Assembly (NCBI GenBank): GCA_028704885.1
Contig: JAQWEN010000001.1
Span: 109,172 to 173,171, forward strand
DNA: 64,000 bases
From: Candidatus Shapirobacteria bacterium
Lineage (GTDB): Bacteria; Patescibacteriota; Microgenomatia; UBA12405
Direction: 5' to 3'
This document shows, in pieces, positions 944-53,362 of this stretch. The position numbers were made by a program, and so were the translations under genes. Every line of letters begins with the position of its first letter. Positions within the stretch are counted from its first letter, which is position 1. The notes below the pieces were generated by a model, which saw only the letters and a list, made by a program, of their open reading frames with translations, was not told where the DNA came from and did no database searches.

Positions 944-1005
944 TAAATCCTCTCTGTCTCGCTACTGCGAGACATCTCCCCTTAACAAAGGGAGAAGCCT
1001 TTAAC

Positions 1006-1032
1006 GAAAAACCCCTCCAGTTTTGGAGGGGT
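1006..1032 (-). terminator. Rho-independent terminator for the pilin gene at 1056..1433
   Basis: Hairpin cccctcca-gtttt-ggagggg. On the minus strand it is followed by a T-run, the complement of aaaaa at 1006-1011. Confidence 0.55.
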
Positions 1033-1055
1033 TTAAAAATCAATCTGATTTTAAA

Positions 1056-1433
1056 TTAGAAAGGTTTGATGGTTAGATCACCAAGGATGCTAATACCAAA
1101 AACTGTTCCAATTAATTGCATTATGGCCCAAGCTGCGAAAACAATGACTAAACCAATTAGAGCATTGGTAATTTGAGCACGAGCAGCAGCAACTTTCTTT
1201 TCATCACCACCAGAAGTAATCCATTTAAGACCACCAATGACAAGAATAAAGAAGAAAATTAAAGAAACGACGATTAAAACTAAGCTGATAGCACCGGAAA
1301 CCATACGATTGACAGTTAAACCTTCGAGATTTTTAAAGGTTCCGTCTCCGGCAGTTAACTTTAGGCTGTCAGCTGCATAGATTGGAGCGGCAATGGCAGC
1401 GAACTGAATTTTATTTTTGATTTGTTTAATCAT
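1056..1433 (-). CDS. TrbC/VirB2-like pilin family protein, paralog 2
   Basis: N-terminal hydrophobic segment, 'ITSGGDEKKVAAARA' motif, second TM helix. Confidence 0.6.
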   Translation of the reverse strand: MIKQIKNKIQFAAIAAPIYAADSLKLTAGDGTFKNLEGLTVNRMVSGAISLVLIVVSLIFFFILVIGGLKWITSGGDEKKVAAARAQITNALIGLVIVFAAWAIMQLIGTVFGISILGDLTIKPF

Positions 1434-1472
1434 TTTTATTTTAATAATTATTAACTAATTTTAGCAGTAAAT

Positions 1473-1844
1473 TTAAATAGTTGGCCATTTAATTTCTAAG
1501 GTGCCTAGTCCGTCGATACCAAAAATATAACCAACTAGTTTAAGAAGAGCGAGAACTGAGAAAATAATAACAATACCGACTAGGGAATAAAGAAGGGCAT
1601 GTTGGGCTTCTTCATATTTTTTAGGATCACCCATGGAAGAAATCATATGATAACCAGCGAGAATAAAATGATAGACAAAATAAATGACACCAAAAACAAA
1701 TAAAACAGAAATTATTGTTTGAATAGCACTATTAATATAGCCAGTGGGATTTTCACTTACATTTATGTTATCTTTGTTGGTTAAAACAGGATTAATTATT
1801 TGGGCGTAGATTGGTTGAATTAAAGTCATATCTTTATTGAGCAA
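1473..1844 (-). CDS. TrbC/VirB2-like pilin family protein, paralog 3
   Basis: 'SSMGDPKKYEEAQ' motif between two TM helices. Confidence 0.6.
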   Translation of the reverse strand: MLNKDMTLIQPIYAQIINPVLTNKDNINVSENPTGYINSAIQTIISVLFVFGVIYFVYHFILAGYHMISSMGDPKKYEEAQHALLYSLVGIVIIFSVLALLKLVGYIFGIDGLGTLEIKWPTI

Positions 1845-2196
1845 TCGTTTTACTAAAAAATGTTTGTAAATTGAAAACAGAACTCATACCAAGAAGATTG
1901 GCAATTAGAGCACCGAGACCATAGGCAAGGATAATGATGGCTAAACCCATAACATTTGTGGTTAATCGTTTTTTGGCTGATTCAAGTTCTTTTGGATCAC
2001 CTTGGGAAGCGATCATAGTAAAACCAGCTAAAATTATTTGGATAGTAAAATAAATGACACCGATGATAGTCATAATACCGATGATGGCACTAATAATGTT
2101 TTCGATTTGAGGAGCTGATCCAACATTTGTATCGCTTGGTTGGATACCTGGACCAGTAAGAGGATAGGCTAATAATTTATTGGTTAATTGGTTCAT
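1834..2196 (-). CDS. TrbC/VirB2-like pilin family protein, paralog 4
   Basis: 'ASQGDPKELESAKK' motif between two TM helices. Overlaps the neighbouring paralog by 11 nt. Confidence 0.6.
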   Translation of the reverse strand: MNQLTNKLLAYPLTGPGIQPSDTNVGSAPQIENIISAIIGIMTIIGVIYFTIQIILAGFTMIASQGDPKELESAKKRLTTNVMGLAIIILAYGLGALIANLLGMSSVFNLQTFFSKTIAQ

Positions 2197-2198
2197 AA

Positions 2199-2525
2199 TT
2201 ATATTTCTGGATTAAGAATGTTTAAGCCGAGCCAATGACCAATGGTATTGGTAAGGACAAAGGCAGAGGCAACAATAACAATACCAATAAGACTTTGCCA
2301 AATAGTGGCCCAAGCTTGAGCAGTTTTTTTCTCGTCACCGTTGGCAGAAAGATAAGTATAACCGGCAATAATAATTTGAATGACGAAATAGATGCCGGCA
2401 ATAGTGCCAGCTAGTTTAAAAATAGCACTTAAAAAAACGAAAATTCCATTACCACCACCACCGCCAGCATTTTCAAAATCCTGAATTGCTTTAGGAGCTT
2501 GAATGTTTCCAAAAATTCCTATCAT
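2199..2525 (-). CDS. TrbC/VirB2-like pilin family protein, paralog 5
   Basis: 'LSANGDEKKTAQAW' motif between two TM helices. A Gly-rich stretch GGGGGNG follows the N-terminus. Confidence 0.6.
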   Translation of the reverse strand: MIGIFGNIQAPKAIQDFENAGGGGGNGIFVFLSAIFKLAGTIAGIYFVIQIIIAGYTYLSANGDEKKTAQAWATIWQSLIGIVIVASAFVLTNTIGHWLGLNILNPEI

Positions 2526-2535
2526 ATTTTTATTT

Positions 2536-2975: not shown

Positions 2976-3027
2976 ACGCAACAAATTAGTTCTTCAAGTT
3001 ATCAAGTTATAAAGTAGAATAAGTTAT

Positions 3028-3906
3028 ATGAAAAAAATAGTCGCCCCACTATTAATAGTATTTGGTGTTTTGTATTTATTACTTGGCACAAGACCGATTG
3101 AAGCTAAGGCGGTAAAGATTCTTCCAACTAAAACAGCAACTCCGACAGCAACCTTAATTCCAACAGCAATTCCAACAATAACCAATATTACCGAAGCAAA
3201 AAGCAATAAAATTGATTATAAGGTGGGAAAATGGAATGGTTTGAATAGTATGAGATGGATGATTAGACTGGCGATTGAAAGAGGGGTGTCGACTAATACA
3301 ATAGTTTTACTTTTATTACTGCCATTAATTGCAACTTTGGTGTCATTTTTGCATTATGTGGTGGGTTTGTCCGGTTATGGAATTTTTATGCCAACAATGA
3401 TTGCAGTGGCTTTTTTGGCAACTGGTTTCTTTGGTGGATTATTACTTTTTGCTTTAATTTTGATTATTTCTTTGGTTGGTGATTTTATTTTGAAAAAATT
3501 GAAGATTCATTTTTGGCCAGCTAGAGCCATTAATTTAATGTTTATTTCGGTGGCTGTTTTTGGGTTAATGTTATTGACTAGTTTTGTAGATTTGATTGAT
3601 ATTAGTTCAATTTCTATTTTCCCAATCTTATTTATGATACTTTTAGCAGAAGAATTTGTGAGAACACAATTGGTTAAAAGTAAAAGTGAGGCTAAAAATC
3701 TAATGATAGGAACAATTGTATTGGCTATTAGTGGAGGAGTCTTGATGAATTTTAGTTCGGTTCAAAATTTGGTTTTGAGATATCCAGAACTAGTTATATT
3801 AGTAGTATTGGTGGCAAATTTATTGATTGGAAATTATTCAGGAATAAGGTTGACAGAAATAAAAAGATTTAAAGGGGCGATACGTTCTAAACCCACCACC
3901 CGATAA
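3028..3906 (+). CDS. Polytopic membrane protein with about 6-7 TM helices and a signal/anchor plus Thr/Pro-rich linker; possible 7TM partner of the ATP-grasp system
   Basis: N-terminal hydrophobic segment, T/P-rich low-complexity stretch, then six to seven predicted TM helices. The C-terminal 'SKPTTR' tail is encoded by an RPE-like repeat. Confidence 0.55.
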   Translation: MKKIVAPLLIVFGVLYLLLGTRPIEAKAVKILPTKTATPTATLIPTAIPTITNITEAKSNKIDYKVGKWNGLNSMRWMIRLAIERGVSTNTIVLLLLLPLIATLVSFLHYVVGLSGYGIFMPTMIAVAFLATGFFGGLLLFALILIISLVGDFILKKLKIHFWPARAINLMFISVAVFGLMLLTSFVDLIDISSISIFPILFMILLAEEFVRTQLVKSKSEAKNLMIGTIVLAISGGVLMNFSSVQNLVLRYPELVILVVLVANLLIGNYSGIRLTEIKRFKGAIRSKPTTR

Positions 3907-3954
3907 ATCGGGAGCCTCCCTTGAAGAAGGGAGGCCTTAATTAATTTAATTAAT

Positions 3955-5319
3955 ATGTTTAATTTAAGAAAATATCGACAATTTTTGACCAAAAATGAGA
4001 GAAATAAGGTCTATTTGAGAAAAAATAGTGCCAGTGGTAAGGCAATTGCTGATAGTAAATTTAAAACAAAAAGAATTATTTCTAAAGCTGGAGTGTCGGT
4101 ACCAAAGCTGATAGCCAGATTCAAAACAGAACAAGATTTGGCTAAATTCAGATGGGAAGATTTGGAAGGTAATTTTGTAATAAAACCGGAATCTGGTTAT
4201 GGTGGAGATGGAATTTTAATTATTCGAAAAAGAGGAAAATGGGCTGGGGAATGGCAAAAAATGAATGGAGAAATTGTAAAAAGTTACGATTTGAATATGC
4301 AGTGTGAGGAAATTTTGGCAGGAAAATATAGTTTACATACTATGCCAGATAGAGTATTGATTGAAGAAAGAATTAAAATTCATCCGATGTTCTTATCGTT
4401 GACTAAGTCAGGAACTCCAGATATTAGAGTGATTGTTTACAACAATGTGCCTGTGATGGCGATGTTTAGAATTCCGACTGAAAAAAGTGGAGGTAAGGCT
4501 AATTTACAACAAGGGGCAATGGGACTGGGGATTGATTTAGCAACAGGAATTACAACTTTTGGAATTGAAGGAAAAGGAGAAGAAATCTATCGAATTTATG
4601 ATTTTGGTAAGAAAAAAAATAGAAAAGTGAATGGAATTAAAATTCCTTTTTGGAGAGAAATATTAGAAACGGCGATTAATTGTCAAAAAGCGGTTCCAAC
4701 TTTGGGATTTATGGGGGTGGATGTGGTTTTGGATAAAGAGAAGGGGCCAATGGTGCTGGAAGTAAATGCCAGACCGGGACTTTCGATTCAAATTTGTAAT
4801 AAAGCGGGGTTAAAAGCCAGAATAGAAAAAGTTGACGGGATAACAGTTCGAAGTATTGATCATGCGGTTACTTTGGCTAAATATTTATTTGGAGAAAGTT
4901 TTTTTGAAAAAGTTGAAGAAAAAGAGAAAAAACAAACAGTGGCACCAATAGAAATAATTAAAGTTAAAATTCCAAAAGGGTTTAAACCGCTTTTACAAAA
5001 AAGTCCGATTCTTAAGCAAGGAAAGCATAGAGTGGTGGATGTTAGAGCTAAAGTTGATACTGGAGCATTTAGAAGTTCGATTGATAGAAATTTGGCTGAA
5101 AAATTGGGTTTATTAACTAAAGATAGAATTTTATATTATCGAAATTATAAGTCGAGTTTGGGAAAACATCACGATCGACCGGTAATCGGGATTACTTTTT
5201 GGCTTAATGGCAGAAAAGTGATAACGGCAGTGAATGTAGCGGATAGAGATAAATTGAGAACTAAATTTTTATTAGGTAGAAAGGATCTAGGAGGATTCTT
5301 GGTTAGTGCTAAAAAATAA
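3955..5319 (+). CDS. RimK-related ATP-grasp ligase (alpha-L-glutamate-ligase-like) fused to a C-terminal RimB-type retropepsin-like domain ('ATP-dependent Zn protease', PF05618-like)
   Basis: The N-terminal 'RNKVYLRKNSASGKAIADSKFKTKRIISKAGVSVPKL' is typical of the TIGR02291-like ligase family; ATP-grasp core follows. The C-terminal 'RAKVDTGAFRSSID...LLGRKDLGGFLV' matches the DTGA-containing retropepsin-like domain that partners RimK. Confidence 0.65.
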   Translation: MFNLRKYRQFLTKNERNKVYLRKNSASGKAIADSKFKTKRIISKAGVSVPKLIARFKTEQDLAKFRWEDLEGNFVIKPESGYGGDGILIIRKRGKWAGEWQKMNGEIVKSYDLNMQCEEILAGKYSLHTMPDRVLIEERIKIHPMFLSLTKSGTPDIRVIVYNNVPVMAMFRIPTEKSGGKANLQQGAMGLGIDLATGITTFGIEGKGEEIYRIYDFGKKKNRKVNGIKIPFWREILETAINCQKAVPTLGFMGVDVVLDKEKGPMVLEVNARPGLSIQICNKAGLKARIEKVDGITVRSIDHAVTLAKYLFGESFFEKVEEKEKKQTVAPIEIIKVKIPKGFKPLLQKSPILKQGKHRVVDVRAKVDTGAFRSSIDRNLAEKLGLLTKDRILYYRNYKSSLGKHHDRPVIGITFWLNGRKVITAVNVADRDKLRTKFLLGRKDLGGFLVSAKK

Positions 5320-5322
5320 TAA

Positions 5323-5372
5323 TCCTCTCTGTCCCGCTGTTGCGGGACATCTCCCCTTAACAAAGGGAGAAA
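5323..5372. repeat. RPE-like palindromic repeat (family 1)
   Basis: aatcctctctgtcCCGCTGTTGCGGGacatctccCCTTaacaAAGGgagaa. The copy at 7376 is nearly identical. Confidence 0.8.
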
Positions 5373-5415
5373 ATAAATTAATAATTAAGAATTAAAAATT
5401 AATAATATATAAAAT

Positions 5416-6387
5416 ATGACCAAAATAGCAGTGTTTTTTGGAGGGAAAATTAGTCAACATTTGGTGTTGGTGAAAAAGGCGGCAAAGAAATTGGGAGTTA
5501 AATTGGATTTAATTTCTTATAATAAAATTTGCTTTGATACGGAAAGTAGCAAAATTTTAATAAGACCAAATTTGGTCGGCGAAAGCAGAATTAAACAATT
5601 TGATGATTTTCAAAAAGTCGATGATTATGATGTGTTATTTTTTAGAACCACCGGAAAACATTGGGAAGAGGTCGATCTTATTATTAATCAAATTAATAAG
5701 GGCGACCACAAGAGTCGCCCGTACATAGTTGATCCATTGGTGGAAAGTGGAAAACCATCGATGGCTTGTAAAGCTTGGCAAATGTTGGCTTTGAAAGAAG
5801 CGGGAATAGAGGTACCAAAAACGGTTTATGGGAGTTTGTGGTATTTGTATGAACAAATGCGGGCAGACACATCGGTCTGCCCTTACACTTGGCCAGTGAT
5901 AATTAAAGGATCGGGTGGAGATAGAGGAACAAGAGTTTTTAAGGCGGATAATTTAAAACAATTGGAAAAATTAGTTAGAGATTTGAGAAAAAGTGAAACT
6001 GAAGAGGGCCGAAGATATATGCTACAAGAATTTATTCCTAATGATGGTGATTTTAGAGTTTTGGTTTTGGGAGAAAAAGTGTTGGGAGTGATGAAAAGAA
6101 GCAGTCAATCGGTGGCCGAATTTAAGAATAATTATTCGGCCGGGGGAAAAGTAGAAGTGGCTGATTTGCCGGAAGAAATTAAACAATTAGCGGTTAAGGC
6201 GGCGAAAGTTTGCGGATTGGCAGTGGCGGGAGTGGATGTGGCTTTTAGAGATTTTGATCTTAAAAAACCAGTAATTTGGGAAGTTAATAAAGGACCTCAA
6301 TTTAAAGGTTTTATGCAGGCAACTGGAATTGATGTACCAGCAGAAATAGTTAAATTTTTAGTAAGTTTAAAACCCCTCTGTCGATAA
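5416..6387 (+). CDS. RimK-family ATP-grasp ligase
   Basis: Pre-ATP-grasp N-terminus. ATP-grasp motifs 'WPVIIKGSGGDRGTRVF', 'MLQEFIPNDGDFRVLVLGEKVLGVMKRS' and 'AGVDVAF...WEVNKGPQFKGF'. The C-terminal 'KPLCR' is encoded by a repeat copy. Confidence 0.75.
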   Translation: MTKIAVFFGGKISQHLVLVKKAAKKLGVKLDLISYNKICFDTESSKILIRPNLVGESRIKQFDDFQKVDDYDVLFFRTTGKHWEEVDLIINQINKGDHKSRPYIVDPLVESGKPSMACKAWQMLALKEAGIEVPKTVYGSLWYLYEQMRADTSVCPYTWPVIIKGSGGDRGTRVFKADNLKQLEKLVRDLRKSETEEGRRYMLQEFIPNDGDFRVLVLGEKVLGVMKRSSQSVAEFKNNYSAGGKVEVADLPEEIKQLAVKAAKVCGLAVAGVDVAFRDFDLKKPVIWEVNKGPQFKGFMQATGIDVPAEIVKFLVSLKPLCR

Positions 6388-6417
6388 ATCGACATCTCCC
6401 CTTGAAGAAGGGGAGAA
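6372..6417. repeat. RPE-like palindromic repeat (family 1); the central hairpin is a cgATAAAtcg variant
   Basis: cccctctgtCGATAAATCGacatctccCCTTgaagAAGGggagaa. Confidence 0.75.
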
Positions 6418-6438
6418 ATATAAATTAAATATATAAAA

Positions 6439-7377
6439 ATGAATAAAAAAATAGTCACATTTACAATGTCGTTAAAACAAAGCCAATTTGAGGTAGATAG
6501 ATTGGAGACTGAAGCTAAAAAACTGGGAGTAGAGGTAAACAGATCGCTTTATAAAGATCTAACTTTTAATTTGGAAAATGGGAAAACCAAAGTTTTGATT
6601 AGAGAAGAAGAAATTAATGGAGAAAATACTTTGGGAATGTGGTTTAGAGTGGCGGGAACAGTGTCGGGAAAATATACTGAGGGTCGAAATTTGGCGATAA
6701 GACTTTTACAAAATGAAGTGTTTGCGGCCAATCATACAGGATATTTGAATTGGACCAGAATGGGAAAAATTAGTCAACATGGATTATTTCTAGAAAACAA
6801 TATTCCAGTGGTACCGACTAAAATATTTTATACAAAAGAACAAATTCAAAACCCCTCTGTCCTTCGGACATCTCCCCTTGATGAAAGGGAGACTTTTGGG
6901 GATTGGGAATTTCCAATTATTGCGAAGCATGAAAAGGGCTATCAAGGTAAAAGTGTGAGGAAATTTGAATCTATAAAAGAAGTTAGAAAGTTTGTAAAGA
7001 GAATTAATGAAAAGAATATTGGAATGTTTTTGTGGCAAAAATGTTTACCAACCAGATGGGATTTGAGAATTATTGTGTTGGACGGAAAGGCAATTGGGGC
7101 CATGAAAAGATCGGCAGTCGGTGATGAATTTAGAAGCAATTTTAGCTTGGGGGGAAATGTTGAAGCATGGAATTTGTCGGAAACTGATAGAGAAATTGCG
7201 GAAAAGGTGGCTAAAGTTTGTGGATTGGATTATTGTGGAGTAGATATTATGAAAGACAATGATGACAATAGTTTTGTATTGGAAGTAAACCGACAATGCC
7301 AATTTCAGGGTTTTGAAAAGTCGACGGGAATTAATGTGGCTAAATTAGTAGTGGAAATGTTTTTGAAAAAGAAATAA
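6439..7377 (+). CDS. RimK-family ATP-grasp ligase carrying an in-frame RPE-like repeat insertion
   Basis: 'FPIIAKHEKGYQGKSVRKF', 'DLRIIVLDGKAIGAMKRS' and 'GVDIM...LEVNRQCQFQGF' are ATP-grasp motifs. Residues 'NPSVLRTSPLDERE' are translated from the repeat copy at 6850-6893. Confidence 0.7.
   Translation: MNKKIVTFTMSLKQSQFEVDRLETEAKKLGVEVNRSLYKDLTFNLENGKTKVLIREEEINGENTLGMWFRVAGTVSGKYTEGRNLAIRLLQNEVFAANHTGYLNWTRMGKISQHGLFLENNIPVVPTKIFYTKEQIQNPSVLRTSPLDERETFGDWEFPIIAKHEKGYQGKSVRKFESIKEVRKFVKRINEKNIGMFLWQKCLPTRWDLRIIVLDGKAIGAMKRSAVGDEFRSNFSLGGNVEAWNLSETDREIAEKVAKVCGLDYCGVDIMKDNDDNSFVLEVNRQCQFQGFEKSTGINVAKLVVEMFLKKK
6850..6893. repeat. RPE-like repeat (family 1) inserted in-frame inside the ATP-grasp CDS
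   Basis: aacccctctgtCCTTCGGacatctccCCTTgatgaAAGGgagac. The frame is uninterrupted. Confidence 0.7.
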
Positions 7378-7426
7378 TCCTCTCTGTCCCGCTGCTGCGG
7401 GACATCTCCCCTTAACAAAGGGAGAA
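7376..7426. repeat. RPE-like palindromic repeat (family 1)
   Basis: aatcctctctgtcCCGCTGCTGCGGGacatctccCCTTaacaAAGGgagaa. Confidence 0.8.
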
Positions 7427-7489
7427 TTTTTTTATTTTTACGGGTATTTTAATTTTAGTAGGTTACTGTTAAAATAGGTTTACTTTTGA

Positions 7490-7563
7490 GGGTGATTAGC
7501 TCAGTTGGTTAGAGCACCGTCCTGATAAGACGGGGGTCGGAGGTTCGAGTCCTCCATCACCCA
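7490..7563 (+). tRNA. tRNA-Ile (anticodon GAT)
   Basis: The cloverleaf folds by hand. Acceptor stem GGGTGAT/ATCACCC. Anticodon stem CCGTC/GACGG with loop CTGATAA. T-arm GGAGG-TTCGAGT-CCTCC. CCA is not encoded. Confidence 0.85.
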
Positions 7564-7573
7564 CAGATACAAA

Positions 7574-7626
7574 ATCCCTCTCGTTCGCCAGCTGGCGAAC
7601 GCATCTCCCTTTGATAAAAGGGAGAA
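7574..7626. repeat. RPE-like repeat (family 1); the central hairpin is a gttcgccagctggcgaac variant
   Basis: aatccctctcGTTCGCCAGCTGGCGAACgcatctccCTTTgataAAAGggagaa. It lies immediately 3' of tRNA-Ile. Confidence 0.7.
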
Positions 7627-7655
7627 ATTGTTTTTGTTTTGTTAGAATTAAAGAC

Positions 7656-8771
7656 ATGAAGAAGTGGATTTTAAGATTAGGATTGATTCTTATATTAGTT
7701 GGTGGGTTTTTGGGATGGGGTTTTTTGAATAATAAAATTGAGATTTTAAATCCATTGTCCAATAAAAAAACTGTTGTTAATCATAAAAAAAACATGAAAG
7801 TGGTGGGTTTTTTACCTACTTGGAATATTGGTAAAACAATTGAATATACAGATGAAATTAGCCATTTGATATTTTTGGGAATAGAAATTGATGAAAAAGG
7901 AAACTTGATCTGGGATACTCAGAGTAAAAAAATAAATAATGAAAATTATCTAAAACAAAAAGAATTAATTTGGAAAAATGGAGGTAAAAATATTTTGGGA
8001 ATTAAATTATTTGAAGATGAAAATATTGATAAATTGATGGCTTCGGAGGAGGCCCAGGATAACTTGCTTAATCAATTAGCTGAATTATTAAAAACAAATA
8101 AGTTTGATGGGGTTAATGTTGATTTTGAATATATGGGGAATCCAACAGCAATTTTATCGGAAGAAATTGTTGGTTTTTTAAATAAATTAAAAGAAGAAAA
8201 TTTAGGCGAAATCAGTTTAGATGTATTTGCCAATACTATTATTAAAGGTGATCAAGAGAATTTATTAAAATTAATGGCCGAAGTTGATTATTTAATAGTG
8301 ATGGCTTATGACTTTCATCGACCAGGAGTGGATTTTGCTGGACCGGTGGCACCAATTAGGGCATCAGTAGGAGAGAGAAGTATTTTGGAAGTGATAGAAA
8401 AAATAGGAATTTCTGGTTTAGACAAAACTAAAATGGTGTTGGCATATCCCTTATATGGTTATGAATGGAAAACTTATAACAATGAATTTGGGGCAGCGGT
8501 TAAAAGAGGCTGGTCGGCTTTGGCTTCGTATAAAAGGATGAAAGAGATGATAGATACTGCCGACACTAAAGCTATGGCGGTTAAATGGGATGAGGAATCG
8601 ATGACACCGTGGATGTCTTTTGAAGAAAATGGGGTAATTCACCAGATTTATTTTGAAAATTTGGAAAGTATTACCAGGAAAATTGAATTGGCAAAAAATA
8701 ATCAGATGGGAGGAATTGGTTTTTGGGCGTTAGGTTATGAAGGAGAAAATAGTGAAGTTTGGGAATTTTAG
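7656..8771 (+). CDS. Glycoside hydrolase family 18 (chitinase-like) protein with an N-terminal membrane anchor
   Basis: The GH18 catalytic motif 'FDGVNVDFEY' fits the DGxDxDxE pattern. 'LIVMAYDFH' and 'GGIGFWALGYEG' are present. I chose the start at MKKWILRLGLILILVGG (7656); the track start at 7611 would read through the repeat. Confidence 0.7.
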   Translation: MKKWILRLGLILILVGGFLGWGFLNNKIEILNPLSNKKTVVNHKKNMKVVGFLPTWNIGKTIEYTDEISHLIFLGIEIDEKGNLIWDTQSKKINNENYLKQKELIWKNGGKNILGIKLFEDENIDKLMASEEAQDNLLNQLAELLKTNKFDGVNVDFEYMGNPTAILSEEIVGFLNKLKEENLGEISLDVFANTIIKGDQENLLKLMAEVDYLIVMAYDFHRPGVDFAGPVAPIRASVGERSILEVIEKIGISGLDKTKMVLAYPLYGYEWKTYNNEFGAAVKRGWSALASYKRMKEMIDTADTKAMAVKWDEESMTPWMSFEENGVIHQIYFENLESITRKIELAKNNQMGGIGFWALGYEGENSEVWEF

Positions 8772-9412
8772 CTATTTTTTTTAAGCCATTTTTCTCGTTT
8801 AAGAAAAAGGAATCCCAAAATTAGACCAGCACCGACAACAGTGAGAACACTTTCGATTTTATCTAGACCATGAGCTAGACCAGTAAAAGCTTCGCCCATT
8901 TGAAAACCGATAAAGCCTAAAATAATGGCACGAACAATAAGGGCTAAAAACATAATAGGATAAAATTTGGCTGGTTTAAAGCGGAAAGCACCACAGAAAC
9001 CAGACATTAAAGAAACTGGGACAACGGGAATAATGACAGCAATAAAAATAAAGAGTTCATCTTTGATGGTTTTTTGAAAATCGGCTCTAATTTTTTCAAT
9101 TAAAGGCCAAGAAATACCAACATATTTACCAAATTTATCAACTAATGGTCGACCACCAAAATAAGCGATTAAAAAAACCATACTGGTACCAATAACGGCA
9201 CCAATGGAATAAGGAAGGGAAACTTTGGAAATTATTTCCCAAAGAGCTTGAAAAATGGAAACATTATGAGAAACAAGAAAGGCGCCACCGGACATAGTAA
9301 TAATAGGGGATGGAATAGGAACTATGATTTGTTCAACTATACCGCCAATGAACATAGATAAAGATCCATGGGTTTTGACCATGTCGAGAATAATTTGAAG
9401 AATTTGAGTCAT
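8768..9412 (-). CDS. DedA/TVP38-family membrane protein
   Basis: 'GGIVEQIIVPIPSPIITMSGGAFL' matches the DedA signature 'e.i.PiP.e.l...aG'. 'GGRPLVDKFGKY' is present. Multiple TM helices. Confidence 0.65.
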   Translation of the reverse strand: MTQILQIILDMVKTHGSLSMFIGGIVEQIIVPIPSPIITMSGGAFLVSHNVSIFQALWEIISKVSLPYSIGAVIGTSMVFLIAYFGGRPLVDKFGKYVGISWPLIEKIRADFQKTIKDELFIFIAVIIPVVPVSLMSGFCGAFRFKPAKFYPIMFLALIVRAIILGFIGFQMGEAFTGLAHGLDKIESVLTVVGAGLILGFLFLKREKWLKKNS

Positions 9413-9484
9413 GGCTTAATATTATCGTCAAAATGAATTATTGTCTAGCGAACTTTTAGAGATAAACTGAGCTATATTTAGTTG

Positions 9485-9513
9485 TTGACGTGTCTGTTCA
9501 AATTAGGTAGAAT
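9485..9513 (+). promoter_or_regulatory. Near-consensus sigma70 promoter: TTGACG, 17-nt spacer, TAGAAT
   Basis: ttgacg at 9485-9490, tagaat at 9508-9513, spacer exactly 17 nt. Confidence 0.6.
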
Positions 9514-9616
9514 ACTTCCACTTATCGAGATGCTGAAAGTCAACCTAAAAAACAATAAAAACTTTATTAAAGGGGGATTGCCCGCTTAAGAAAGTAAATT
9601 GTAAATGGAATATTGA

Positions 9617-9644
9617 CCGAAAGCTCCGAGCTTTCGGTTTTTTT
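9617..9644 (+). terminator. Intrinsic terminator closing the roughly 130-nt unit that begins at the promoter
   Basis: ccgaaagc-tccga-gctttcgg followed by ttttttt. Confidence 0.6.
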
Positions 9645-9680
9645 ATGACCAAAAGCAGTACTTTAAAGAGGATAGCATTT

Positions 9681-9754
9681 GGGCCTGTGGCTTAGTTGGT
9701 TATAGCGCCTCATTTGCAATGAGGAGGTCGGGAGTTCGACTCTCCCCAGGTCCA
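9681..9754 (+). tRNA. tRNA-Ala (anticodon TGC)
   Basis: Acceptor stem GGGCCTG/CAGGTCC includes a G3:U70 wobble, the alanine identity element. Anticodon stem CCTCA/TGAGG with loop TTTGCAA. T-arm GGGAG-TTCGACT-CTCCC. Confidence 0.85.
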
Positions 9755-9928
9755 CCTACGCATAAAGCTACGGTGGATAAATCCACTAATAAATGGTTAG
9801 AAATAAGGAGACAAAGAAATTTATCTCCTTAAACTAAGTATTTGTACATTAACAATTTATTGAATCGAAAGTAATTTAATTTCAATTTCGTTTATTCTTG
9901 GCAACTAAATTGAGTTGCCAAATATTGA

Positions 9929-12855
<2,927 letters not shown>

Positions 12856-13061
12856 GATTTAAGCTAAGTAGAGAGAAGATTGAAGAAACTTTTTCAATAT
12901 GTTTGGCTTTTAGCCCCAATCAAAATTTGGGATTAAAAGCTGAATGGGCAACTCAATTTAGAGGCCAAGAAGAAGAACTTTAGAGCTTTAGTTCGCTAGA
13001 GCTTTAGATTTTAGAAATTAGAAATTATAATTACATTTTCGATCAAATTTAGTTTTTGAAC

Positions 13062-13178
13062 TCTGGTCATTGGAGCGAAGTGGACCCACCTCTTCCCATT
13101 TCGAACAGAGAAGTGAAACTCTTTAGCGCTGACAATAGTCTTTCCGCAAGGGATCTTGAAGATAGGTCGTGGCCAGAA
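13062..13178 (+). rRNA. rrf: 5S ribosomal RNA
   Basis: 'cttcccatttcgaacagagaagtgaaactctttagcgctgacaatagt' matches the 5S loop-B/C consensus '...CCCATnCCGAACnnGGAAGTnAAGC...'. Terminal helix ctggtca/tggccag. Confidence 0.85.
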
Positions 13179-13210
13179 TTCAGAAACTAAATTGATAGGT
13201 TGTTTAAAAC

Positions 13211-13292
13211 CTCATCACAAAATTTTTTATAATCGGTGAGATCTGCGTAGCAGGCTCAATATTATAAAAAATTGTGATTTCGGATTTAAACA
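13211..13292. repeat. MITE-like palindromic repeat (family 2), copy 1
   Basis: The arms atcacaaaattttttataat and attataaaaaattgtgat flank the core cggtgagatctgcgtagcaggctcaat. About 85% identical to the copy at 54268. Confidence 0.75.
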
Positions 13293-13357
13293 TATTTTCG
13301 ATTCAATAAGTTAAATACATATTAATAATTTATTTGGGGTAACCAATCCCGCGAAAG

Positions 13358-16677: not shown

Positions 16678-16760
16678 TTCTCGATACGAATTTTTTATGT
16701 CTGGTGAATGTGGTTGCTCACGTTCAAGGACACAAAAAATTGCATCTTCAAATTTAAACC
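16678..16760. repeat. MITE-like repeat (family 2), diverged copy
   Basis: ttctcgatacgaattttttatgt...gaatgtggttgctcacgttc...acaaaaaattgcatcttcaaatttaaa. Confidence 0.5.
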
Positions 16761-17525: not shown

Positions 17526-17592
17526 CTCTTTGTCACGAATTTTTATGTAATCGGCGAATGTGCGTCGCACGTAAAAATACCGATAAATCGGT
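17526..17592. repeat. MITE-like repeat (family 2), partial copy with the gaatgtgcgtcgcac core
   Basis: ctctttgtcacgaatttttatgtaatcggcgaatgtgcgtcgcacgt... It is joined to the ccgataaatcgg hairpin. Confidence 0.55.
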
Positions 17593-37528: not shown

Positions 37529-37533
37529 AAACA

Positions 37534-37625
37534 AAACCCCTCCGCCCTTTGGGCACCTCCCCTTGAAGAATGGGAGGCTTTATGTTGAGCCCTCCCTTTT
37601 CAAGGGAGGGTGGGGGTGGGTTTTA
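37534..37625. repeat. RPE-like repeat (family 1), inverted pair of units
   Basis: aaaacccctccGCCCTTTGGGCacctccCCTTgaagaatGGGAgg ... gccCTCCCttttcaaGGGAGggtgggggtgggtttt. Confidence 0.7.
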
Positions 37626-37926: not shown

Positions 37927-38241
37927 ATGGCTTATGAAATATGTATTTTAAAGGTTGAAGAGTTTAAAAAGTTTGTTAATAAATTAGATTGTGATGGTAA
38001 AGCAAGATTGACTAGAGACATAGATTTCTTAAAAGAAAATGGATCCGGTTTAAAGATGCCATTTGCCAAAAAGATTGATAAAAAGCTTTGGGAATTAAGA
38101 ACCAGTGGTAAACAAAAAATTAGAATTATTTATTCTATTGTAGGGACTCAAATATATGTGGTTAATTGGTTTATTAAAAAAACACAAAAAACTCCGATTA
38201 AAGAATTAAAGACAGCAATTAAGCGATTGACAGAGATATAG
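37927..38241 (+). CDS. RelE/ParE-superfamily toxin of the Gp49/HigB-like type
   Basis: '...KKLWELRTSGKQKIRIIYSIVGTQIYVVNWFIKKTQKTPIKELKTAIKRL' matches Gp49-like (PF05973) toxins. The toxin-first gene order is as in higBA. Confidence 0.6.
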   Translation: MAYEICILKVEEFKKFVNKLDCDGKARLTRDIDFLKENGSGLKMPFAKKIDKKLWELRTSGKQKIRIIYSIVGTQIYVVNWFIKKTQKTPIKELKTAIKRLTEI

Positions 38242-38246
38242 CGTTT

Positions 38247-38534
38247 ATGCTATATTATTTTATGGATAACTGGCAAACAATAAAAAAAGAAATATTAAGC
38301 AATTCTGAAGTAAAAAAGACCTATGATGGGTTAGATGTGGAGTATCAGATATTAAGTGATATGGTTAGAATTAGAAATAAAAAGAAAATTACCCAAAAAG
38401 AGTTAGCAAAAAAGATGGGAACAACCCAGTCGGCTTTGTCGAGATTTGAAATGGGGGATGTAAACCCTAGTTTGGATTTTTTAAAGAAAGTGGCAATTGC
38501 TTTGGGAAGTAAATTGGTGGTGAGATTGGAATAA
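38247..38534 (+). CDS. XRE-family HTH antitoxin (HigA-like)
   Basis: 'ITQKELAKKMGTTQSALSRFEMGDVNPSLDFLKKVAIALG' is a helix-turn-helix. The gene lies 5 nt downstream of the toxin gene. Confidence 0.6.
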   Translation: MLYYFMDNWQTIKKEILSNSEVKKTYDGLDVEYQILSDMVRIRNKKKITQKELAKKMGTTQSALSRFEMGDVNPSLDFLKKVAIALGSKLVVRLE

Positions 38535-42846: not shown

Positions 42847-42880
42847 TAGTTAAGTGTAACAAATTTTGTTTAATTTAAAT

Positions 42881-42965
42881 TCTCATTACGGAATTTTTGT
42901 GTAATCGGCGAATGTGCGTCGCACGTTCGATATTACAAAAAATTGTAATTTCGAATTTAAATTAT
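42881..42965. repeat. MITE-like repeat (family 2) with the gaatgtgcgtcgcacgttc core
   Basis: tctcattacggaatttttgtgtaatcggcgaatgtgcgtcgcacgttcgatattacaaaaaattgtaatttcgaatttaaa. Confidence 0.75.
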
Positions 42966-49196: not shown

Positions 49197-49739
49197 ATGG
49201 ATTATCACAGAAGATCAATTCGATTGGATGGATTCGATTATTCAAACAATAGATATTATTTTGTGACGGTTTGTTGTCAAAACAGAGAAAAAATATTTGG
49301 TGAAATTGGTGTAGGGGCGGGTCTTGTGCCCGCCCTTATGGAAAATAAAATGATTTTGAATGATGTTGGGATTATGGTGAAAAAAATTATTTTGGAATAT
49401 TTTAATAAAAATAAATTAATTTTTTTGGATGAATTTATTATTATGTCTGATCATATTCATATGATTGTGGTGATTAAAAATAAATTTATAAATAATGATG
49501 TGAACGATGAAATAAATACAAGGGCGGGCACAAGACCCGCCCCTACATTGGGAATGATTATGGGTGAATTTAAATCAATAATTACCAATGAATATATTAA
49601 AAATATAAAAGAAAATAATTGGCCACGTTTTAATAAACGATTGTGGCAACGTAATTATTACGAAAGAATAATTCGCAATGAAAAAGAATATTTAATGATT
49701 AAAAAATATATTAAAGATAACCCTATAAATAAAAAGTAA
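49197..49739 (+). CDS. REP-associated tyrosine transposase (RAYT; IS200/Y1 HUH family) with two in-frame REP-like hairpin insertions
   Basis: 'YYFVTVCCQNRE' and 'SDHIHMIVV' give the HuH motif. 'LWQRNYYERIIRNEKEYL' is the catalytic Tyr region typical of RAYT/TnpA-REP. The segments 'GVGAGLVPAL' and 'TRAGTRPAPT' are encoded by GC-rich palindromes. Confidence 0.75.
   Translation: MDYHRRSIRLDGFDYSNNRYYFVTVCCQNREKIFGEIGVGAGLVPALMENKMILNDVGIMVKKIILEYFNKNKLIFLDEFIIMSDHIHMIVVIKNKFINNDVNDEINTRAGTRPAPTLGMIMGEFKSIITNEYIKNIKENNWPRFNKRLWQRNYYERIIRNEKEYLMIKKYIKDNPINKK
49311..49335. repeat. REP-like GC-rich hairpin (GTAG-gggcggg-tcttgtg-cccgccc) inside the RAYT gene
   Basis: gtaggggcgggtcttgtgcccgccc. Its inverted partner lies at 49523-49546. 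Confidence 0.75.
49523..49546. repeat. REP-like GC-rich hairpin, inverted copy ending ...CTAC; together with 49311-49335 it forms a REPIN-like pair
   Basis: gggcgggcacaagacccgcccctac is the exact reverse complement of the first copy. Confidence 0.75.
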
Positions 49740-51153: not shown

Positions 51154-51161
51154 AGAGGGGT

Positions 51162-51926
51162 TTAATATTTTGGGATGGCGATGTAATTAATAGAATTTTG
51201 ATAAGTGCCGGCAGTTTGATCTGGAGAAATATTAACTTTATAAGTAATCGTGGCGATGTGATCCTTGACGGGAATATTTTCGGACATAATAATTTTGGCA
51301 GTTTCGCCGGCAGAATTATCAGCAAATTGACGGAAATAAGTGGAATTAGAGAAAAAACTAGAAGTACCATCACCACTGCCATTAAGACCAAAACCGTAAG
51401 CGGTACTGCTGGTCCAAACATCTGATGTTGATTCGGAGCAAGTATTAGAATCGCATTTAGTGTCAGGGATAGTAGAATTACCACCAATAGTTTTTAAGGG
51501 ATGATTGGCAATAGTAAGAATGTCATAGCCATGAGCGGTGGGAGTGCTGATGGTTAAAGTATTAGAGACAGTCGAGCCAACGCTAGGAACCAAATTGCCA
51601 AAATTTAAATCAAGATTACTAATTTGAAAAGAGAAAGGAATATTACTTTCGTAGATATATTGAAAACCAGCTTTGACAGTATAACCAGTGCTGTCATATT
51701 GACCGGGAGCATTTTGGCCAACAGAGTCGGTTAGAGTGTAAGTACTAGAAGTTTTTTTGCCACCAGTCATATTAAAGTTACCGAATTCAATATGGAAATT
51801 GTTGGAATCAAAAGTCTGAGCAAATAAGATGTTAGATCGTAGATGATAGATCGTAGATAAAAATAAAAAGGTTATAAAAAAAATAAGGGGTTTTTTATTC
51901 ATCTGATTCTTGATCAATTTGGGCAA
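51162..51926 (-). CDS. WxL-like surface protein (CscB/C-type), second locus
   Basis: Signal peptide. 'FHIEFGNFNMTG'. The Cys pair plus 'DVWTSST'. C-terminal 'AGTYQNSINYIAIPKY'. Paralogous to 44937..46364. Confidence 0.4.
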   Translation of the reverse strand: MPKLIKNQMNKKPLIFFITFLFLSTIYHLRSNILFAQTFDSNNFHIEFGNFNMTGGKKTSSTYTLTDSVGQNAPGQYDSTGYTVKAGFQYIYESNIPFSFQISNLDLNFGNLVPSVGSTVSNTLTISTPTAHGYDILTIANHPLKTIGGNSTIPDTKCDSNTCSESTSDVWTSSTAYGFGLNGSGDGTSSFFSNSTYFRQFADNSAGETAKIIMSENIPVKDHIATITYKVNISPDQTAGTYQNSINYIAIPKY

Positions 51927-52554
51927 TTAATTGTTCGGAAGAATTTAGAAGGGATTTGGCAGAATCTTTAATTTTTTTGGCTTTTTCTTTTTGACTAGGA
52001 GAAATAGAAGAAGATAAAAGTTCTGAACTGCTATCAATAATTTGGCAAAGACCGGTTTTAAGTTTTAAAGAGTGCCAAAGTAAAACATCGGTTTCGTCGG
52101 CAGAAATGATTTGATCATCTTTAATTTTGGCTAAAAATTGTTTGCCGATAAACCAGGCCAGAGGAGTGATTAATAAAAGAGAAGAGAGAGAAATGACAGA
52201 AAGGAAGGAATTGAGTGATTGTGATAGAATTAGAACTAGAAAAAAGGAATAAGAAAGAGTGGTGGTGGCTGGGTTTTGAAAGGCAATGAAAAATAAAAGG
52301 AAATAAATAAGAAAGAAAAAAGGAGAATTTAGGCCGTTGGTGGCGAAGACAATGATGTTGACTAAAAGAGCAATTAAATGAATAGAAAGAGTTTTTTTGG
52401 TGAAATAGAGAATTAGAAGGGTAATTGAGACTAGAGCGATTAATTGGGGAGCAAAATAAAGAAAATTAGAGACGGAAAAAAAGAAGGAAAATAAAGAAAT
52501 TAAAAAAAATAAAATAATACTAATAATCTGAGACATCATTATAGTATTAATCAT
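51895..52554 (-). CDS. Hypothetical polytopic membrane protein with a C-terminal Ser/Glu-rich cytoplasmic tail
   Basis: About five TM helices, then 'ISADETDVLLWHSLKL...KEKAKKIKDSAKSLL'. Confidence 0.4.
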   Translation of the reverse strand: MINTIMMSQIISIILFFLISLFSFFFSVSNFLYFAPQLIALVSITLLILYFTKKTLSIHLIALLVNIIVFATNGLNSPFFFLIYFLLFFIAFQNPATTTLSYSFFLVLILSQSLNSFLSVISLSSLLLITPLAWFIGKQFLAKIKDDQIISADETDVLLWHSLKLKTGLCQIIDSSSELLSSSISPSQKEKAKKIKDSAKSLLNSSEQLIAQIDQESDE

Positions 52555-52601
52555 TTGAGGTTGAGTATCAAGTTTTTGGTCGAAAATGATAAGATTTATT
52601 A

Positions 52602-53213
52602 ATGAGGTTGTTAGAAAAGATACAGAAATTAAAGATTGTAGATGGATTATTGGTGATCGGATTTTTGTTGGTGATTTTAGGAATCGGAATGAATTTTAAA
52701 GATCAGTTTTTGACAAAAGAAGAAACAAAAATAATATCAAAAGATGTTGGTTCTACTAGTAAAAATGATGTACAAGTTGATAGTGAAGTAGTTATTGATA
52801 TATCTGGTGAGGTGGAAAAAACTGGGGTTTATAAACTAAAAAATGGGTCAAGAATTGAAGATGTTTTAATAATGGCGGGAGGATTGAGTGCTAAGGCAGA
52901 TCGAGATTGGGTGGATAAAAATTTAAATAGAGCCGAAAAAGTTTATGATGGACAGAAGATATATATACCTAAAGTTGGGGATAATGTGATGATTAGTAGC
53001 ACCCCGCTGGTGCGGGGTGCTACTGTGGTGAGGCTTAATTCGGCAAGTTTGGAAGAACTGGATAAATTGGATGGAGTTGGTCCAGCAATTGCCCAAAGAA
53101 TTATTGATTATCGAACTGAAAATGGGGGATTTAAAAGTGTGGAGGAAATTAAATTAGTCCCAGGAATTGGCGATAAAATGTTTGAAAAAATAAAAAATGA
53201 AATTCAATTATAA
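52602..53213 (+). CDS. comEA: Competence protein ComEA (SLBB domain plus tandem helix-hairpin-helix)
   Basis: TM anchor. SLBB-like 'VVIDISGEVEKTGVYKLKNGSRIEDVLIMAGG'. HhH pair 'LNSASLEELDKLDGVGPAIAQRIIDYRTENGGFKSVEEIKLVPGIGDKMFEKI'. Confidence 0.85.
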   Translation: MRLLEKIQKLKIVDGLLVIGFLLVILGIGMNFKDQFLTKEETKIISKDVGSTSKNDVQVDSEVVIDISGEVEKTGVYKLKNGSRIEDVLIMAGGLSAKADRDWVDKNLNRAEKVYDGQKIYIPKVGDNVMISSTPLVRGATVVRLNSASLEELDKLDGVGPAIAQRIIDYRTENGGFKSVEEIKLVPGIGDKMFEKIKNEIQL

Positions 53214-53225
53214 ATTTAAGTCAAA

Positions 53226-53302
53226 CTCTCATTACGATTTTTTTACGATCGGCGAATGTGCGTCGCACGTTCGATATCTTAAAAAAATGTAATTTCGACT
53301 TT
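53226..53302. repeat. MITE-like repeat (family 2) with the gaatgtgcgtcgcacgttc core
   Basis: ctctcattacgatttttttacgatcggcgaatgtgcgtcgcacgttcgatatcttaaaaaaatgtaatttcgact. Confidence 0.75.
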
Positions 53303-53319
53303 GACTATTTATTTTTTAA

Positions 53320-53362
53320 GCCCTCCTTGTCAAGGGAGGGTGGTCGAAGACCGGGTGGGTTT
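53320..53362. repeat. RPE-like repeat (family 1), forward-type unit
   Basis: gCCCTCCttgtcaaGGGAGGgtggtcgaagaccgggtgggttt. It lies immediately upstream of the comEC ATG. Confidence 0.65.

Follow-up and report, generated by a model that had tools for sequence, protein, structure and literature searches.

A dispersed palindromic repeat family at gene ends and inside protein-coding genes of a Candidatus Shapirobacteria genome, with a DUF559 endonuclease gene as candidate partner

Bacteria of the Candidate Phyla Radiation (CPR, or Patescibacteria) have tiny, streamlined genomes, in which mobile DNA is usually said to be scarce. The presence of selfish DNA within protein genes is best known from a very distant lineage, Rickettsia, through the Rickettsia palindromic elements (RPEs; Ogata et al. 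2000, as summarized in PMC10969869). RPEs are palindromic repeats dispersed in many copies through a small, reduced genome, with no transposase inside the repeat; a sizeable share lie in-frame in unrelated, intact housekeeping genes, to which they add a short hydrophilic peptide, and the rest are intergenic. The 64-kb stretch of a Candidatus Shapirobacteria genome (CPR/Microgenomates; ~35% G+C, strong positive GC skew) studied here, referred to as the window, contains a repeat family that resembles RPEs in each of these respects. It is a dispersed, fast-turning-over palindromic family acting at the DNA level, RPE-like in behavior and also similar to repetitive extragenic palindromic (REP) sequences and their inverted doublets (REPINs) or to miniature transposable elements with inverted repeats (MITEs). 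The first-pass annotation of this DNA saw the hallmark of RPEs in these repeats. In-frame survival within intact genes supports that description, but the majority of copies are noncoding, and the kinship appears to be one of behavior only, with no homology expected. The annotation had also known of no such case in a CPR-like genome, and indeed no account of palindromic or in-frame repeats in CPR/Patescibacteria was found in the open-access literature.

Copies were located with a covariance model seeded with 13 hand-picked copies and run over the whole window without filters. This yielded 14 copies at 34.6 to 61.1 bits (E ≤ 1e-8), with the runner-up at 19.8 bits. All 12 copies counted earlier were recovered, and two were added, at 17853-17908 (plus strand) and 37588-37625 (minus strand). 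The core motif CTCCCCTTnnnnAAGGGAG occurs at 5 sites with at most 2 mismatches compared to 0.12 expected, ~40-fold over chance, and the family makes up ~1% of the window. The unit opens with a 5′ box (box 1) rich in A and C, whose consensus is (T/C)AAA(A/T)CC(C/A)(T/C)C; two hairpins follow, the first of them (hairpin 1) variable and the second (hairpin 2) conserved. Hairpin 2 comes in two flavors, ATCTCCCCTT-nnnn-AAGGGAGA (5′ arm also given as TCTCCCCTT) and CCTCCCTT-nnnn-AAGGGAGG. A variable plus a conserved hairpin had been claimed for every copy; this holds for 12 of the 14, but the copies at 16472-16510 and 37588-37625 lack hairpin 1. Both hairpins are predicted by folding to be stable. 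Single units measure 38 to 57 nt and inverted doublets ~95 to 140 nt; most copies are solo, with two doublets among the 14 copies of the window and several in metagenome loci. In the doublets, box 1 faces outward, and each of the two in the window (35648-35788 and 37532-37625) folds as a single long hairpin. The copies, together with one related palindrome, are as follows.

944 to 997, plus strand: repeat copy, full form (57.9 bits); intergenic, antisense to two flanking minus-strand small membrane-protein genes
1009 to 1034, no strand assigned: perfect palindrome AAACCCCTCCA-GTTT-TGGAGGGGTTT with an 11-bp stem, a box-1-like sequence and its own complement
3887 to 3936, plus strand: repeat copy (52.5 bits); overlaps the 3′ end of the 7TM_transglut gene (3028-3906)
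5319 to 5372, plus strand: repeat copy (57.5 bits); begins at the stop codon of the ATPgrasp_ST gene (3955-5319)
6368 to 6417, plus strand: repeat copy (61.1 bits); overlaps the 3′ end of the second RimK-like ligase (5416-6387)
6847 to 6893, plus strand: repeat copy, in-frame (57.2 bits); within the third RimK-like ATP-grasp ligase (6439-7377), encodes QNPSVLRTSPLDERE
7374 to 7427, plus strand: repeat copy (57.1 bits); its opening bases are the TAA stop of the third ligase
7570 to 7626, plus strand: repeat copy (44 bits); 6 nt past tRNA-Ile (7490-7564), followed by a T-run
16472 to 16510, plus strand: repeat copy without hairpin 1, in-frame (34.6 bits); within the C-terminal Lon-like domain of RadA (15321-16658), encodes STPNPSFDKEGRK
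17853 to 17908, plus strand: repeat copy, in-frame (46.9 bits, outside the model seed); within the N-terminal region of Rho, encodes QNPPVSAVAETPSLENGGQ
35648 to 35700, plus strand: left half of doublet 1 (50 bits); antisense in the N-terminal region of a giant open reading frame (ORF), read as SSLFKGGGPSPAGRWVS
35742 to 35788, minus strand: right half of doublet 1 (55.1 bits); sense in the giant ORF, read as QNPPALLAPSLEKGW
37532 to 37578, plus strand: left half of doublet 2 (55.4 bits); 3 nt past the stop of a Big_1-domain gene (37055-37528)
37588 to 37625, minus strand: right half of doublet 2 (42.4 bits); no hairpin 1
53318 to 53364, minus strand: repeat copy (52.4 bits); between comEA (52602-53213) and comEC (53365-54288) and antisense to both, ending 1 nt ahead of the comEC start codon

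The family extends well beyond the window. Relatives picked through RadA contain 65 repeat copies in 208 kb, and the exact pattern GACATCTCCCCTTnnnnAAGGGAGA (21 specified bases) occurs in at least 120 metagenome stretches, in which the covariance model found 144 + 62 copies. No covariance-model matches were seen in the non-Shapirobacteria CPR loci examined, and at the Rfam gathering score the only matches in the window were rRNA and tRNA, with no family for the repeat. Exact-pattern scans of IMG/VR with an 18-base pattern gave 2 and 0 matches, taken as chance level, with no sign of phage carriage. Within the window, a weak covariance-model match (973-1036, minus strand, 19.8 bits) lies over the palindrome at 1009-1034, which is possibly a collapsed doublet or a bidirectional terminator.

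The in-frame copies were compared with homologs of their host genes. A good example is RadA, for which 115 homologs (67 to 88% identical) were aligned, 112 of them with a recognizable site between WSSYKEKPL and V(F/W/Y)VGEVSLLGE. An in-frame insert at this place had been proposed from the sequence of the window, and the homologs bear this out: 54 of the 112 have a segment of 10 to 12 residues, the length found in the solved S. pneumoniae RadA, and the other 58 have 15 to 59 residues. Aligned to the window protein, S. pneumoniae RadA shows an 8-residue gap exactly at STPNPSFDKEGRK, in a stretch that reads ...SSYKSTPNPSFDKEGRK... across the insert. The long inserts vary widely (STPNPSFDKEGRK, QNPPALRAPSLEKGGQ, ILSPDKPVSPLNKGRS, QNPSKSPLDRGDL, and some that are doubled or nested), and at least 38 of the 58 are plain translations of the repeat, for instance SPLNKGR, which corresponds to TCTCCCCTTAACAAAGGGAGA. 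At the DNA level, the box and hairpins are present in nine filled radA alleles (L001, L004, L005, L010, L081, L087, L088, L090, and the window; L numbers designate loci). RadA pairs that are 95 to 98% identical elsewhere can be empty or filled with different inserts at the Lon-domain site, and radA alleles with 92% DNA identity differ in 63 nt of repeat. Therefore, this site is struck or rewritten far faster than the gene diverges. The RadA linker (residues 38 to 80) is a second variable region, with the same element in other lineages. In an AlphaFold2 model of RadA built with 41 homologs, the mean predicted local distance difference test score (pLDDT) was 65.5, and both the insert and the conserved strand that follows it scored below 50, values at which surface exposure is not readable.

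The other coding copies add to this picture. The insert in the third ATP-grasp ligase, also called in the first-pass annotation, amounts to a net insertion of 33 nt relative to the syntenic locus L081; the five closest homologs (85% identical) and ~85% of all homologs have a short loop without the insert, and at least eight lineages have other element-like inserts at the same position. In rho (coding region from the ATG at 17802 to 19205), the N-terminal regions of L086 and L001 contain different repeat copies, and the L081 Rho is 18 residues shorter with no model match, its N terminus being too divergent for an empty site to be aligned. In the giant ORF (24254-35941, minus strand), no in-frame start codon separates the doublet from the first transmembrane helix, which means that both doublet halves lie within its reading frame, as had been suggested for the two copies at its N terminus. 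All host genes run to full length and stay conserved past the inserts; they are therefore not pseudogenes. With short alleles in existence as well, the inserted residues are not a conserved feature of homologs that lack the repeat.

A separate observation concerns the start of the giant ORF (3,895 aa). The adjacent 142-aa ORF (35928-36356, minus strand) has Phage_int_SAM domains, the second of which continues into the N terminus of the giant ORF. A frameshift near 35930-35945 appears to have divided a single gene into these two ORFs; a sequencing error, a pseudogene, and a programmed frameshift are all conceivable.

Insertion in-frame is the less frequent outcome; in an independent sample, ~70% of copies are noncoding and lie at or just after stop codons. 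In the window, three copies (5319, 7374, and 37532) begin on a stop codon or no more than 5 nt from one, two have the stop codon in the hairpin-1 loop (3887 and 6368), one follows tRNA-Ile (7570), five are inside ORFs (6847, 16472, 17853, 35648, and 35742), and three are otherwise intergenic. For the 3887 copy, the host TAA is in the hairpin-1 loop (CGATAAATCG) and the final residues KPTTR are element-coded; likewise, the 6368 copy has the host stop codon in this loop (CGATAAATCG) and encodes the tail KPLCR. These are the two C-terminal tails reported earlier, in the ORFs 3028-3906 and 5416-6387. A larger sample of 144 metagenome copies, chosen by DNA pattern and not by RadA, was placed with a simple ORF caller on sequence that is 89% coding. 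Some trends were apparent. First, 78 copies were intergenic, 22 lay over a stop codon, and 44 were within ORFs, an excess in noncoding DNA of ~18-fold. Second, the stop-overlapping copies were in the sense orientation in 17 of 22 cases, mostly with the TAA at element positions 1 to 3, which means that the element's own TAAAACC supplies the stop. Third, intergenic copies showed no orientation bias relative to the upstream gene (32 sense versus 37 antisense). Finally, coding copies were sense or antisense in a 3:1 ratio; a TGA or TAA in the hairpin-2 loop closes one sense frame, and the remaining two sense frames are both used.

Two possible roles at gene borders were considered for the family as a whole. 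A Shine-Dalgarno role was rejected, as the GGGAGG arm is 21 to 47 nt from the next start codon and thus too distant. T-runs directly follow the hairpin only at 7374, 7570, and 35648 among the 14 copies, and as a family the repeats do not qualify as intrinsic terminators.

The first-pass annotation had noted compensatory substitutions in the variable stem from a few copies. The same question was put to 134 distinct, independent metagenome copies, none of them in the model seed, in alignments that were fitted to the model and so favor pairing. Hairpin 1 was 92% paired, with 7 of 7 pairs changed on both sides, and hairpin 2 was 95.5% paired. The observed covariation was reached by 0 of 500 shuffles, slid registers dropped to 45 to 71% paired, and a separate set of 64 copies gave the same result. 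Despite the model-fitted alignment, the diversity of perfectly paired stems is visible in the raw sequences. The compensatory changes are thus confirmed, and the further claim of selection on the stem structure stands as far as the covariation is strong, but it appears to act on DNA rather than on RNA. Among the ~1,300 cells of hairpin 1, 13 were G-T/T-G compared to 26 C-A/A-C; the counts in hairpin 2 were 120 T-G compared to 95 C-A. The rarity of wobble pairs argues that a Watson-Crick DNA palindrome is maintained rather than an RNA fold, and we infer that pairing in the stems is kept as a DNA palindrome. RNA-level selection drew no support from the asymmetry between U-G wobbles and C-A mismatches. 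An alternative fold in which box 1 pairs with the 3′ arm was also rejected, since it is not conserved between the two subfamilies.

Comparison of close relatives revealed how quickly the copies change. The window and L081 (RadA 84% identical) are syntenic over ~20 kb with ~14 copies each, yet of ~12 occupied sites only 4 are occupied in both, and comparable copies are found at 2 of them, in RadA and behind the first ligase. For the other two, at the second ligase's 3′ end and past tRNA-Ile, L081 has no more than a weak, diverged copy of another subtype; the one at the 7570 position differs in hairpin 1. Where a site is filled in both, hairpin 1 is usually wholly different whereas box 1 and hairpin 2 are kept, as in the L081 ortholog of the 5319 copy. 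Empty sites were found in L200 for 5319, in L139 for 3887 (a homologous site), and cleanly in both L081 and L200 for 7374. An extreme example is L084 (RadA 81% identical), which has essentially no copies in the same region. In 13 filled/empty pairs, the insertions measured 50 to 75 nt and lay in short AT-rich spacers directly after stop codons. The unlinked copies at 944, 5319, and 7374 are 80 to 95% identical over ~50 nt, hairpin 1 included.

A candidate partner gene emerged from the metagenome loci, where several convergent copy pairs are ~430 nt apart with a gene of ~130 aa between them. The product of the flanked gene matches Pfam DUF559 at 98 bits, and its closest solved structure is 3hrl (1.9e-19). 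The arrangement is regular. In 10 of the 12 DUF559 genes in the loci examined, a sense copy ends 18 to 29 nt before the ATG; on the 3′ side, an antisense copy overlaps the gene end or sits 11 to 103 nt past it, with box 1 outward on both sides. This downstream copy encodes the tail of the DUF559 protein (...KRLLPFLRGDV...), and many solo copies keep, after hairpin 2, the sequence AGAAGTCTT, which is the complement of the final DUF559 codons. The same geometry is present in L001 and L081, both found through RadA and not through the repeat; the ends in L001 are of the subtype without hairpin 1, and in L081 the geometry appears once a weaker upstream copy is counted. In L086 the upstream copy is present, and the DUF559 gene runs off the end of the locus. 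A profile search returned 4,399 DUF559 homologs at E ≤ 1e-10; among the best 120 of these, the element codes for the C-terminal tail (LLPFLRGDV, LLPLIKGRC, or ASLSREV) of ~113 to 119, and the motif D...ExDG..H is retained in 119. Locus L115 is the L153 locus with most of the DUF559 gene deleted between the two repeats, which ties cassettes to gene-less doublets such as 35648-35788 and 37532-37625. Cassettes have flanks from at least five unrelated contexts and are flipped at the same locus between L001 and L081 and between L156 and L159. In the L084 genome, the repeats of the cassette (L213, 5865-6417) are the only strong copies in the 33.7 kb sampled, a "master without offspring." A homing endonuclease of a group I intron belongs to the clade that unites Vsr and DUF559 (PMC3424549), so that a selfish role for the cassette is plausible. 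The open-access literature searched contained no link of DUF559 to repeats, and on DUF559 homing the only relevant item was this PD-(D/E)xK survey (PMC3424549).

At the position that the cassette occupies in L081, L001, and L086, the window has a gene for a 23S rRNA-intervening-sequence protein/bAvd-like four-helix protein (22660-23019, plus strand), between two TPR genes.

The reading that we favor, though with only modest confidence, is that the repeats are a selfish RPE-like/MITE-like family derived from the ends of the DUF559 cassette, in Candidatus Shapirobacteria and related Microgenomates. The units would be the terminal inverted repeats (~50 to 60 nt) of a ~480-bp cassette whose sole gene encodes the ~130-aa DUF559 (Vsr-like PD-(D/E)xK) endonuclease, with its C-terminal tail encoded by the antisense repeat. 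Solo units and gene-less doublets would be nonautonomous derivatives that have multiplied in some genomes. New copies would prefer A-rich sequence at or just past TAA stops, where the TAA of the element can act as the stop. Copies that landed inside genes, more rarely, would survive only if they left the reading frame intact and hit a surface loop or linker that tolerates them (in RadA, the Lon-domain loop and the linker; in the ATP-grasp ligase, the inter-domain loop; in Rho, the N terminus), adding 8 to 50 residues rich in Pro, Ser, Gly, Lys, Asp, and Glu. The data themselves show the repeat family, its copy number, the covariation of its stems, filled and empty states of orthologous sites, in-frame inserts in intact genes, and the fixed cassette geometry. 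Actual movement of the copies, as opposed to their origin by conversion, and a preference of insertion for A-rich or TAA sequence are inferred from these patterns, and the flanking arrangement suggests the DUF559 protein as the putative mobilizing or maintaining enzyme. A bolder version, which we hold only tentatively, is that repeats and DUF559 gene together may form an unrecognized class of minimal mobile element, in which the predicted nuclease would recognize the hairpin or cruciform ends and mobilize or maintain both the cassette and its gene-less derivatives.

Several observations weigh against derivation from a mobile cassette. The 64-kb window has no DUF559 homolog, and none from the source contig was among the best 120 of the 4,399 homologs. 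The cassette is at one syntenic locus in L081, L001, and L086, which equally fits a resident, vertically inherited gene. As far as is known, no DUF559 protein of small size acts as a transposase. Selection of the metagenome loci by presence of the repeat favors an association, as does the inclusion of the element-coded tail in the query profile. No target-site duplication was seen in the 13 filled/empty pairs, in which the boundaries are blurred by AT-rich divergence, and no precise repeat ends or target could be defined, as the flanks of filled and empty sites also differ. Finally, the complete differences in hairpin 1 between orthologous copies are unexplained by simple transposition.

The least unlikely alternative, unlikely all the same, is that the repeats are host-functional RNA elements, 3′-end hairpins that serve termination, mRNA protection, or operon tuning in the manner of REPs and bacterial interspersed mosaic elements (BIMEs), with selection holding them at the ends of genes and the coding copies accidental. 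The strong enrichment at gene 3′ ends and the stability of both hairpins fit such a role, as do the four genes at 3028-7377, each of which ends in a repeat copy; the last copy of this run (7374, terminator-like in a terminator scan) and the tRNA-Ile copy have terminator-like T-runs. However, a T-run is found in ~3 of the 14 copies, the intergenic copies are evenly oriented, wobble pairs are not favored, and close relatives do without copies at the same gene ends. The multiplication of the repeat, its doublets, and the DUF559 cassette would also be left unexplained. Individual copies such as 7374 and 7570 may nevertheless have a terminator or stabilizer role through later co-option.

About as unlikely, perhaps slightly more so, is a REP/REPIN-type system in which the hairpins are mobilized as single-stranded DNA by the Y1 (IS200-like) transposase encoded at 49197-49739 (plus strand), which resembles a REP-associated tyrosine transposase (RAYT). 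This gene matches Pfam Y1_Tnp at 28.7 bits (cutoff, 23), and its best NCBIfam match is REP_Tyr_transpos (57.3 bits), although that score is below the family cutoff of 80. Short hairpins, a conserved 5′ box, some inverted doublets, and the lack of a target-site duplication would fit single-strand Y1 transposition, but the GT[AG]G conserved in REPs is absent from the repeat, whose 5′ box has no GTAG. The flanks of the RAYT-like gene contain no repeat copy; the gene has its own, different GC-rich palindromes instead. Across ~270 copies in ~0.9 Mb of repeat-rich loci no Y1 homolog adjoins a copy, and the single distant homolog (L197) is 3.6 kb from the nearest one. As a partner of the repeat the RAYT-like gene was therefore dropped, being neither flanked by it nor co-occurring with it. 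As for the protein itself, it has the HUH motif SDHIHMIV and a YY in RNYYERII, and none of the repeat families seen in the window flanks its gene.

Less probable again is an origin without transposition, by template switching during replication and gene conversion between copies at preexisting box-like sites. This would account for orthologous copies that keep box 1 and hairpin 2 while hairpin 1 is replaced yet perfectly paired, including symmetric 2-nt indels on both arms. Some short RadA alleles read QNLS (P0026, seen at the protein level), like a translated box 1; the empty ATP-grasp site partly resembles the 3′ arm; and other mini-palindrome families inside genes have variable stems and a conserved loop. 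On the other hand, conversion at such sites does not explain near-identical 50-nt copies at unlinked loci (944, 5319, and 7374) or clean insertions of 60 to 70 nt in unrelated AT-rich spacers, and a preexisting 10-nt box is too rare to seed so many sites. Template switching or gene conversion probably contributes to hairpin-1 turnover but leaves dispersal unexplained. Selection on a peptide motif (NPS...SPLxKG), with the noncoding copies as decayed gene fragments, is very improbable: all 17 of 17 sense coding copies in the window and RadA-selected relatives share one hairpin-2 frame, but a single obligatory frame had to be rejected on the larger sample, in which two frames and antisense are used (TSPLNKGRS, GHLPLKKGE, and SPFFKGRC), most copies are noncoding, one of them directly after a tRNA, and base pairing rather than the peptide is conserved.

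The window is rich in other palindromes; ~20 distinct GC-rich perfect hairpins of any kind were counted, compared to 0.6 calls per block-wise shuffle. A second, unrelated family is intergenic and consists of ~90-nt AT-rich long palindromes, TTTAAATTC...ATTACGGAATTTTTGTGTAATCGGCGAATGTGCGTCGCACGTTCGATATTACAAAAAATTGTAAT...GAATTTAAA, at 13195-13295, 42861-42965, 53205-53305, and 54262-54346, with partial copies at 16719-16758 and 17507-17572. It folds as one long hairpin (z = -4.8 to -6.9) and follows the 5S rRNA, radA, comEA, and comEC genes. The members of a third family are perfect, GC-rich palindromes of 21 to 22 nt whose stems vary while their loops are conserved (GGGnnnn-CACAAGA or CACATCG-nnnnCCC); every one lies in-frame in a gene. 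Its copies at 5700-5720 and 5861-5882 encode GDHKSRP and RADTSVCP in the second ATP-grasp ligase, that at 15453-15474 encodes GSTHRST in the RadA linker, and those at 49315-49335 and 49522-49542, exact mutual reverse complements, encode GAGLVPA and RAGTRPAP in the RAYT-like gene. In L011, a palindrome of this third family is found in the RadA loop hot spot. Inserts of the form SFSD(V/L)RSQ(I/M)S(G/E)KQ, in the same RadA and ATP-grasp hot spots of other lineages (for example, P0052, P0054, P0082, and P0143; L010, 1021-1167), are probably a further repeat family. The comEA coding region contains a 13-bp perfect palindrome (52995-53024), AGTAGCACCCCGC-TGGT-GCGGGGTGCTACT, with a core like that of some hairpin 1 sequences (CCCGCTGNTGCGGG).

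Other features of the window stand apart from the repeats. Directly downstream of the second doublet, a Gp49-like (DUF891) and HTH_3 pair (37927-38534) has a HigB/HigA-type toxin-antitoxin arrangement. Six tandem paralogous genes for small membrane proteins (108 to 146 aa) with a GGDPKK-like motif occupy 503-2871 on the minus strand, and DNA repeat D16 spans three of them. The rRNA region at 7490-13178 is unusual, with a GH18 gene and a VTT-domain gene between tRNA-Ile and tRNA-Ala-23S-5S; the window has no 16S gene. A local inversion is suggested by the VTT gene (8768-9412), which is on the minus strand in the window but shares the strand of RadA in L081, L083, and L084.

Turnover of the repeat outpaces that of the genes around it, and it rewrites the same core-protein loops (in RadA, Rho, and ATP-grasp ligases) again and again, so that the insert positions form a natural map of insertion-tolerant loops. 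Its occurrence in a lineage so distant from Rickettsia suggests that small, gene-dense genomes generally come to have selfish DNA within their protein genes. For annotation, it accounts for many odd C-terminal tails and length variants of CPR proteins. The fixed association with DUF559 gives a very widespread "domain of unknown function" a testable candidate function and may reveal a new class of enzyme for the mobilization of hairpin repeats. If true, this would be an analogue of REPIN-RAYT built on a different enzyme fold and a significant source of protein length variation in CPR bacteria.

Among known systems, the family is set apart from RPE-1 to RPE-10 by lineage and unit length, and no homology is expected. 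It belongs to the CPR/Microgenomates, its units measure 38 to 57 nt (doublets, 95 to 140 nt) compared to ~100 to 150 bp for RPEs, it is modular with an optional variable hairpin, it is strongly associated with stop codons, and it strikes the same protein loops repeatedly across lineages. A repeat-flanked candidate partner gene, here DUF559, is to our knowledge not known for RPEs. With the REP/REPIN-RAYT systems of Proteobacteria it shares short hairpins with a conserved 5′ motif, solo copies and inverted doublets, positions at gene 3′ ends and within operons, and a small single-gene "master" between two inverted repeats, often at one locus, with some genomes having the gene and few dispersed copies. 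Unlike in those systems, the flanked gene encodes a PD-(D/E)xK DUF559/Vsr-like endonuclease and not an HUH Y1 transposase, there is no GT[AG]G, about one-third of the copies are inside genes, and the RAYT-like gene of the window is unassociated with the repeat. Bacterial MITEs (such as Correia, ERIC, and Nezha) are likewise small noncoding derivatives that share their terminal inverted repeats with a longer gene-bearing unit, with doublets that fold into long hairpins and occasional in-frame fusions with host ORFs; here, however, target-site duplications were not seen, the majority of copies are single "half" units rather than spanning both terminal repeats, and the only gene of the longer unit, DUF559, belongs to no recognized transposase family. 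Vsr-like (EDxHD) homing endonucleases such as I-Bth0305I are small selfish endonuclease genes of the same PD-(D/E)xK clade (Vsr/DUF559/DUF2726; PMC3424549), the activity of the present protein being predicted from its sequence. Those enzymes reside in group I introns and home to a single cognate site, whereas the DUF559 gene here stands free between structured inverted repeats and is associated with hundreds of dispersed gene-less copies. The behavior of the family is therefore of a known kind (RPE, MITE, or REP), whereas, as far as we can tell, its lineage, modular two-hairpin unit, stop-codon habit, recurrent hot spots, and association with DUF559 are new.

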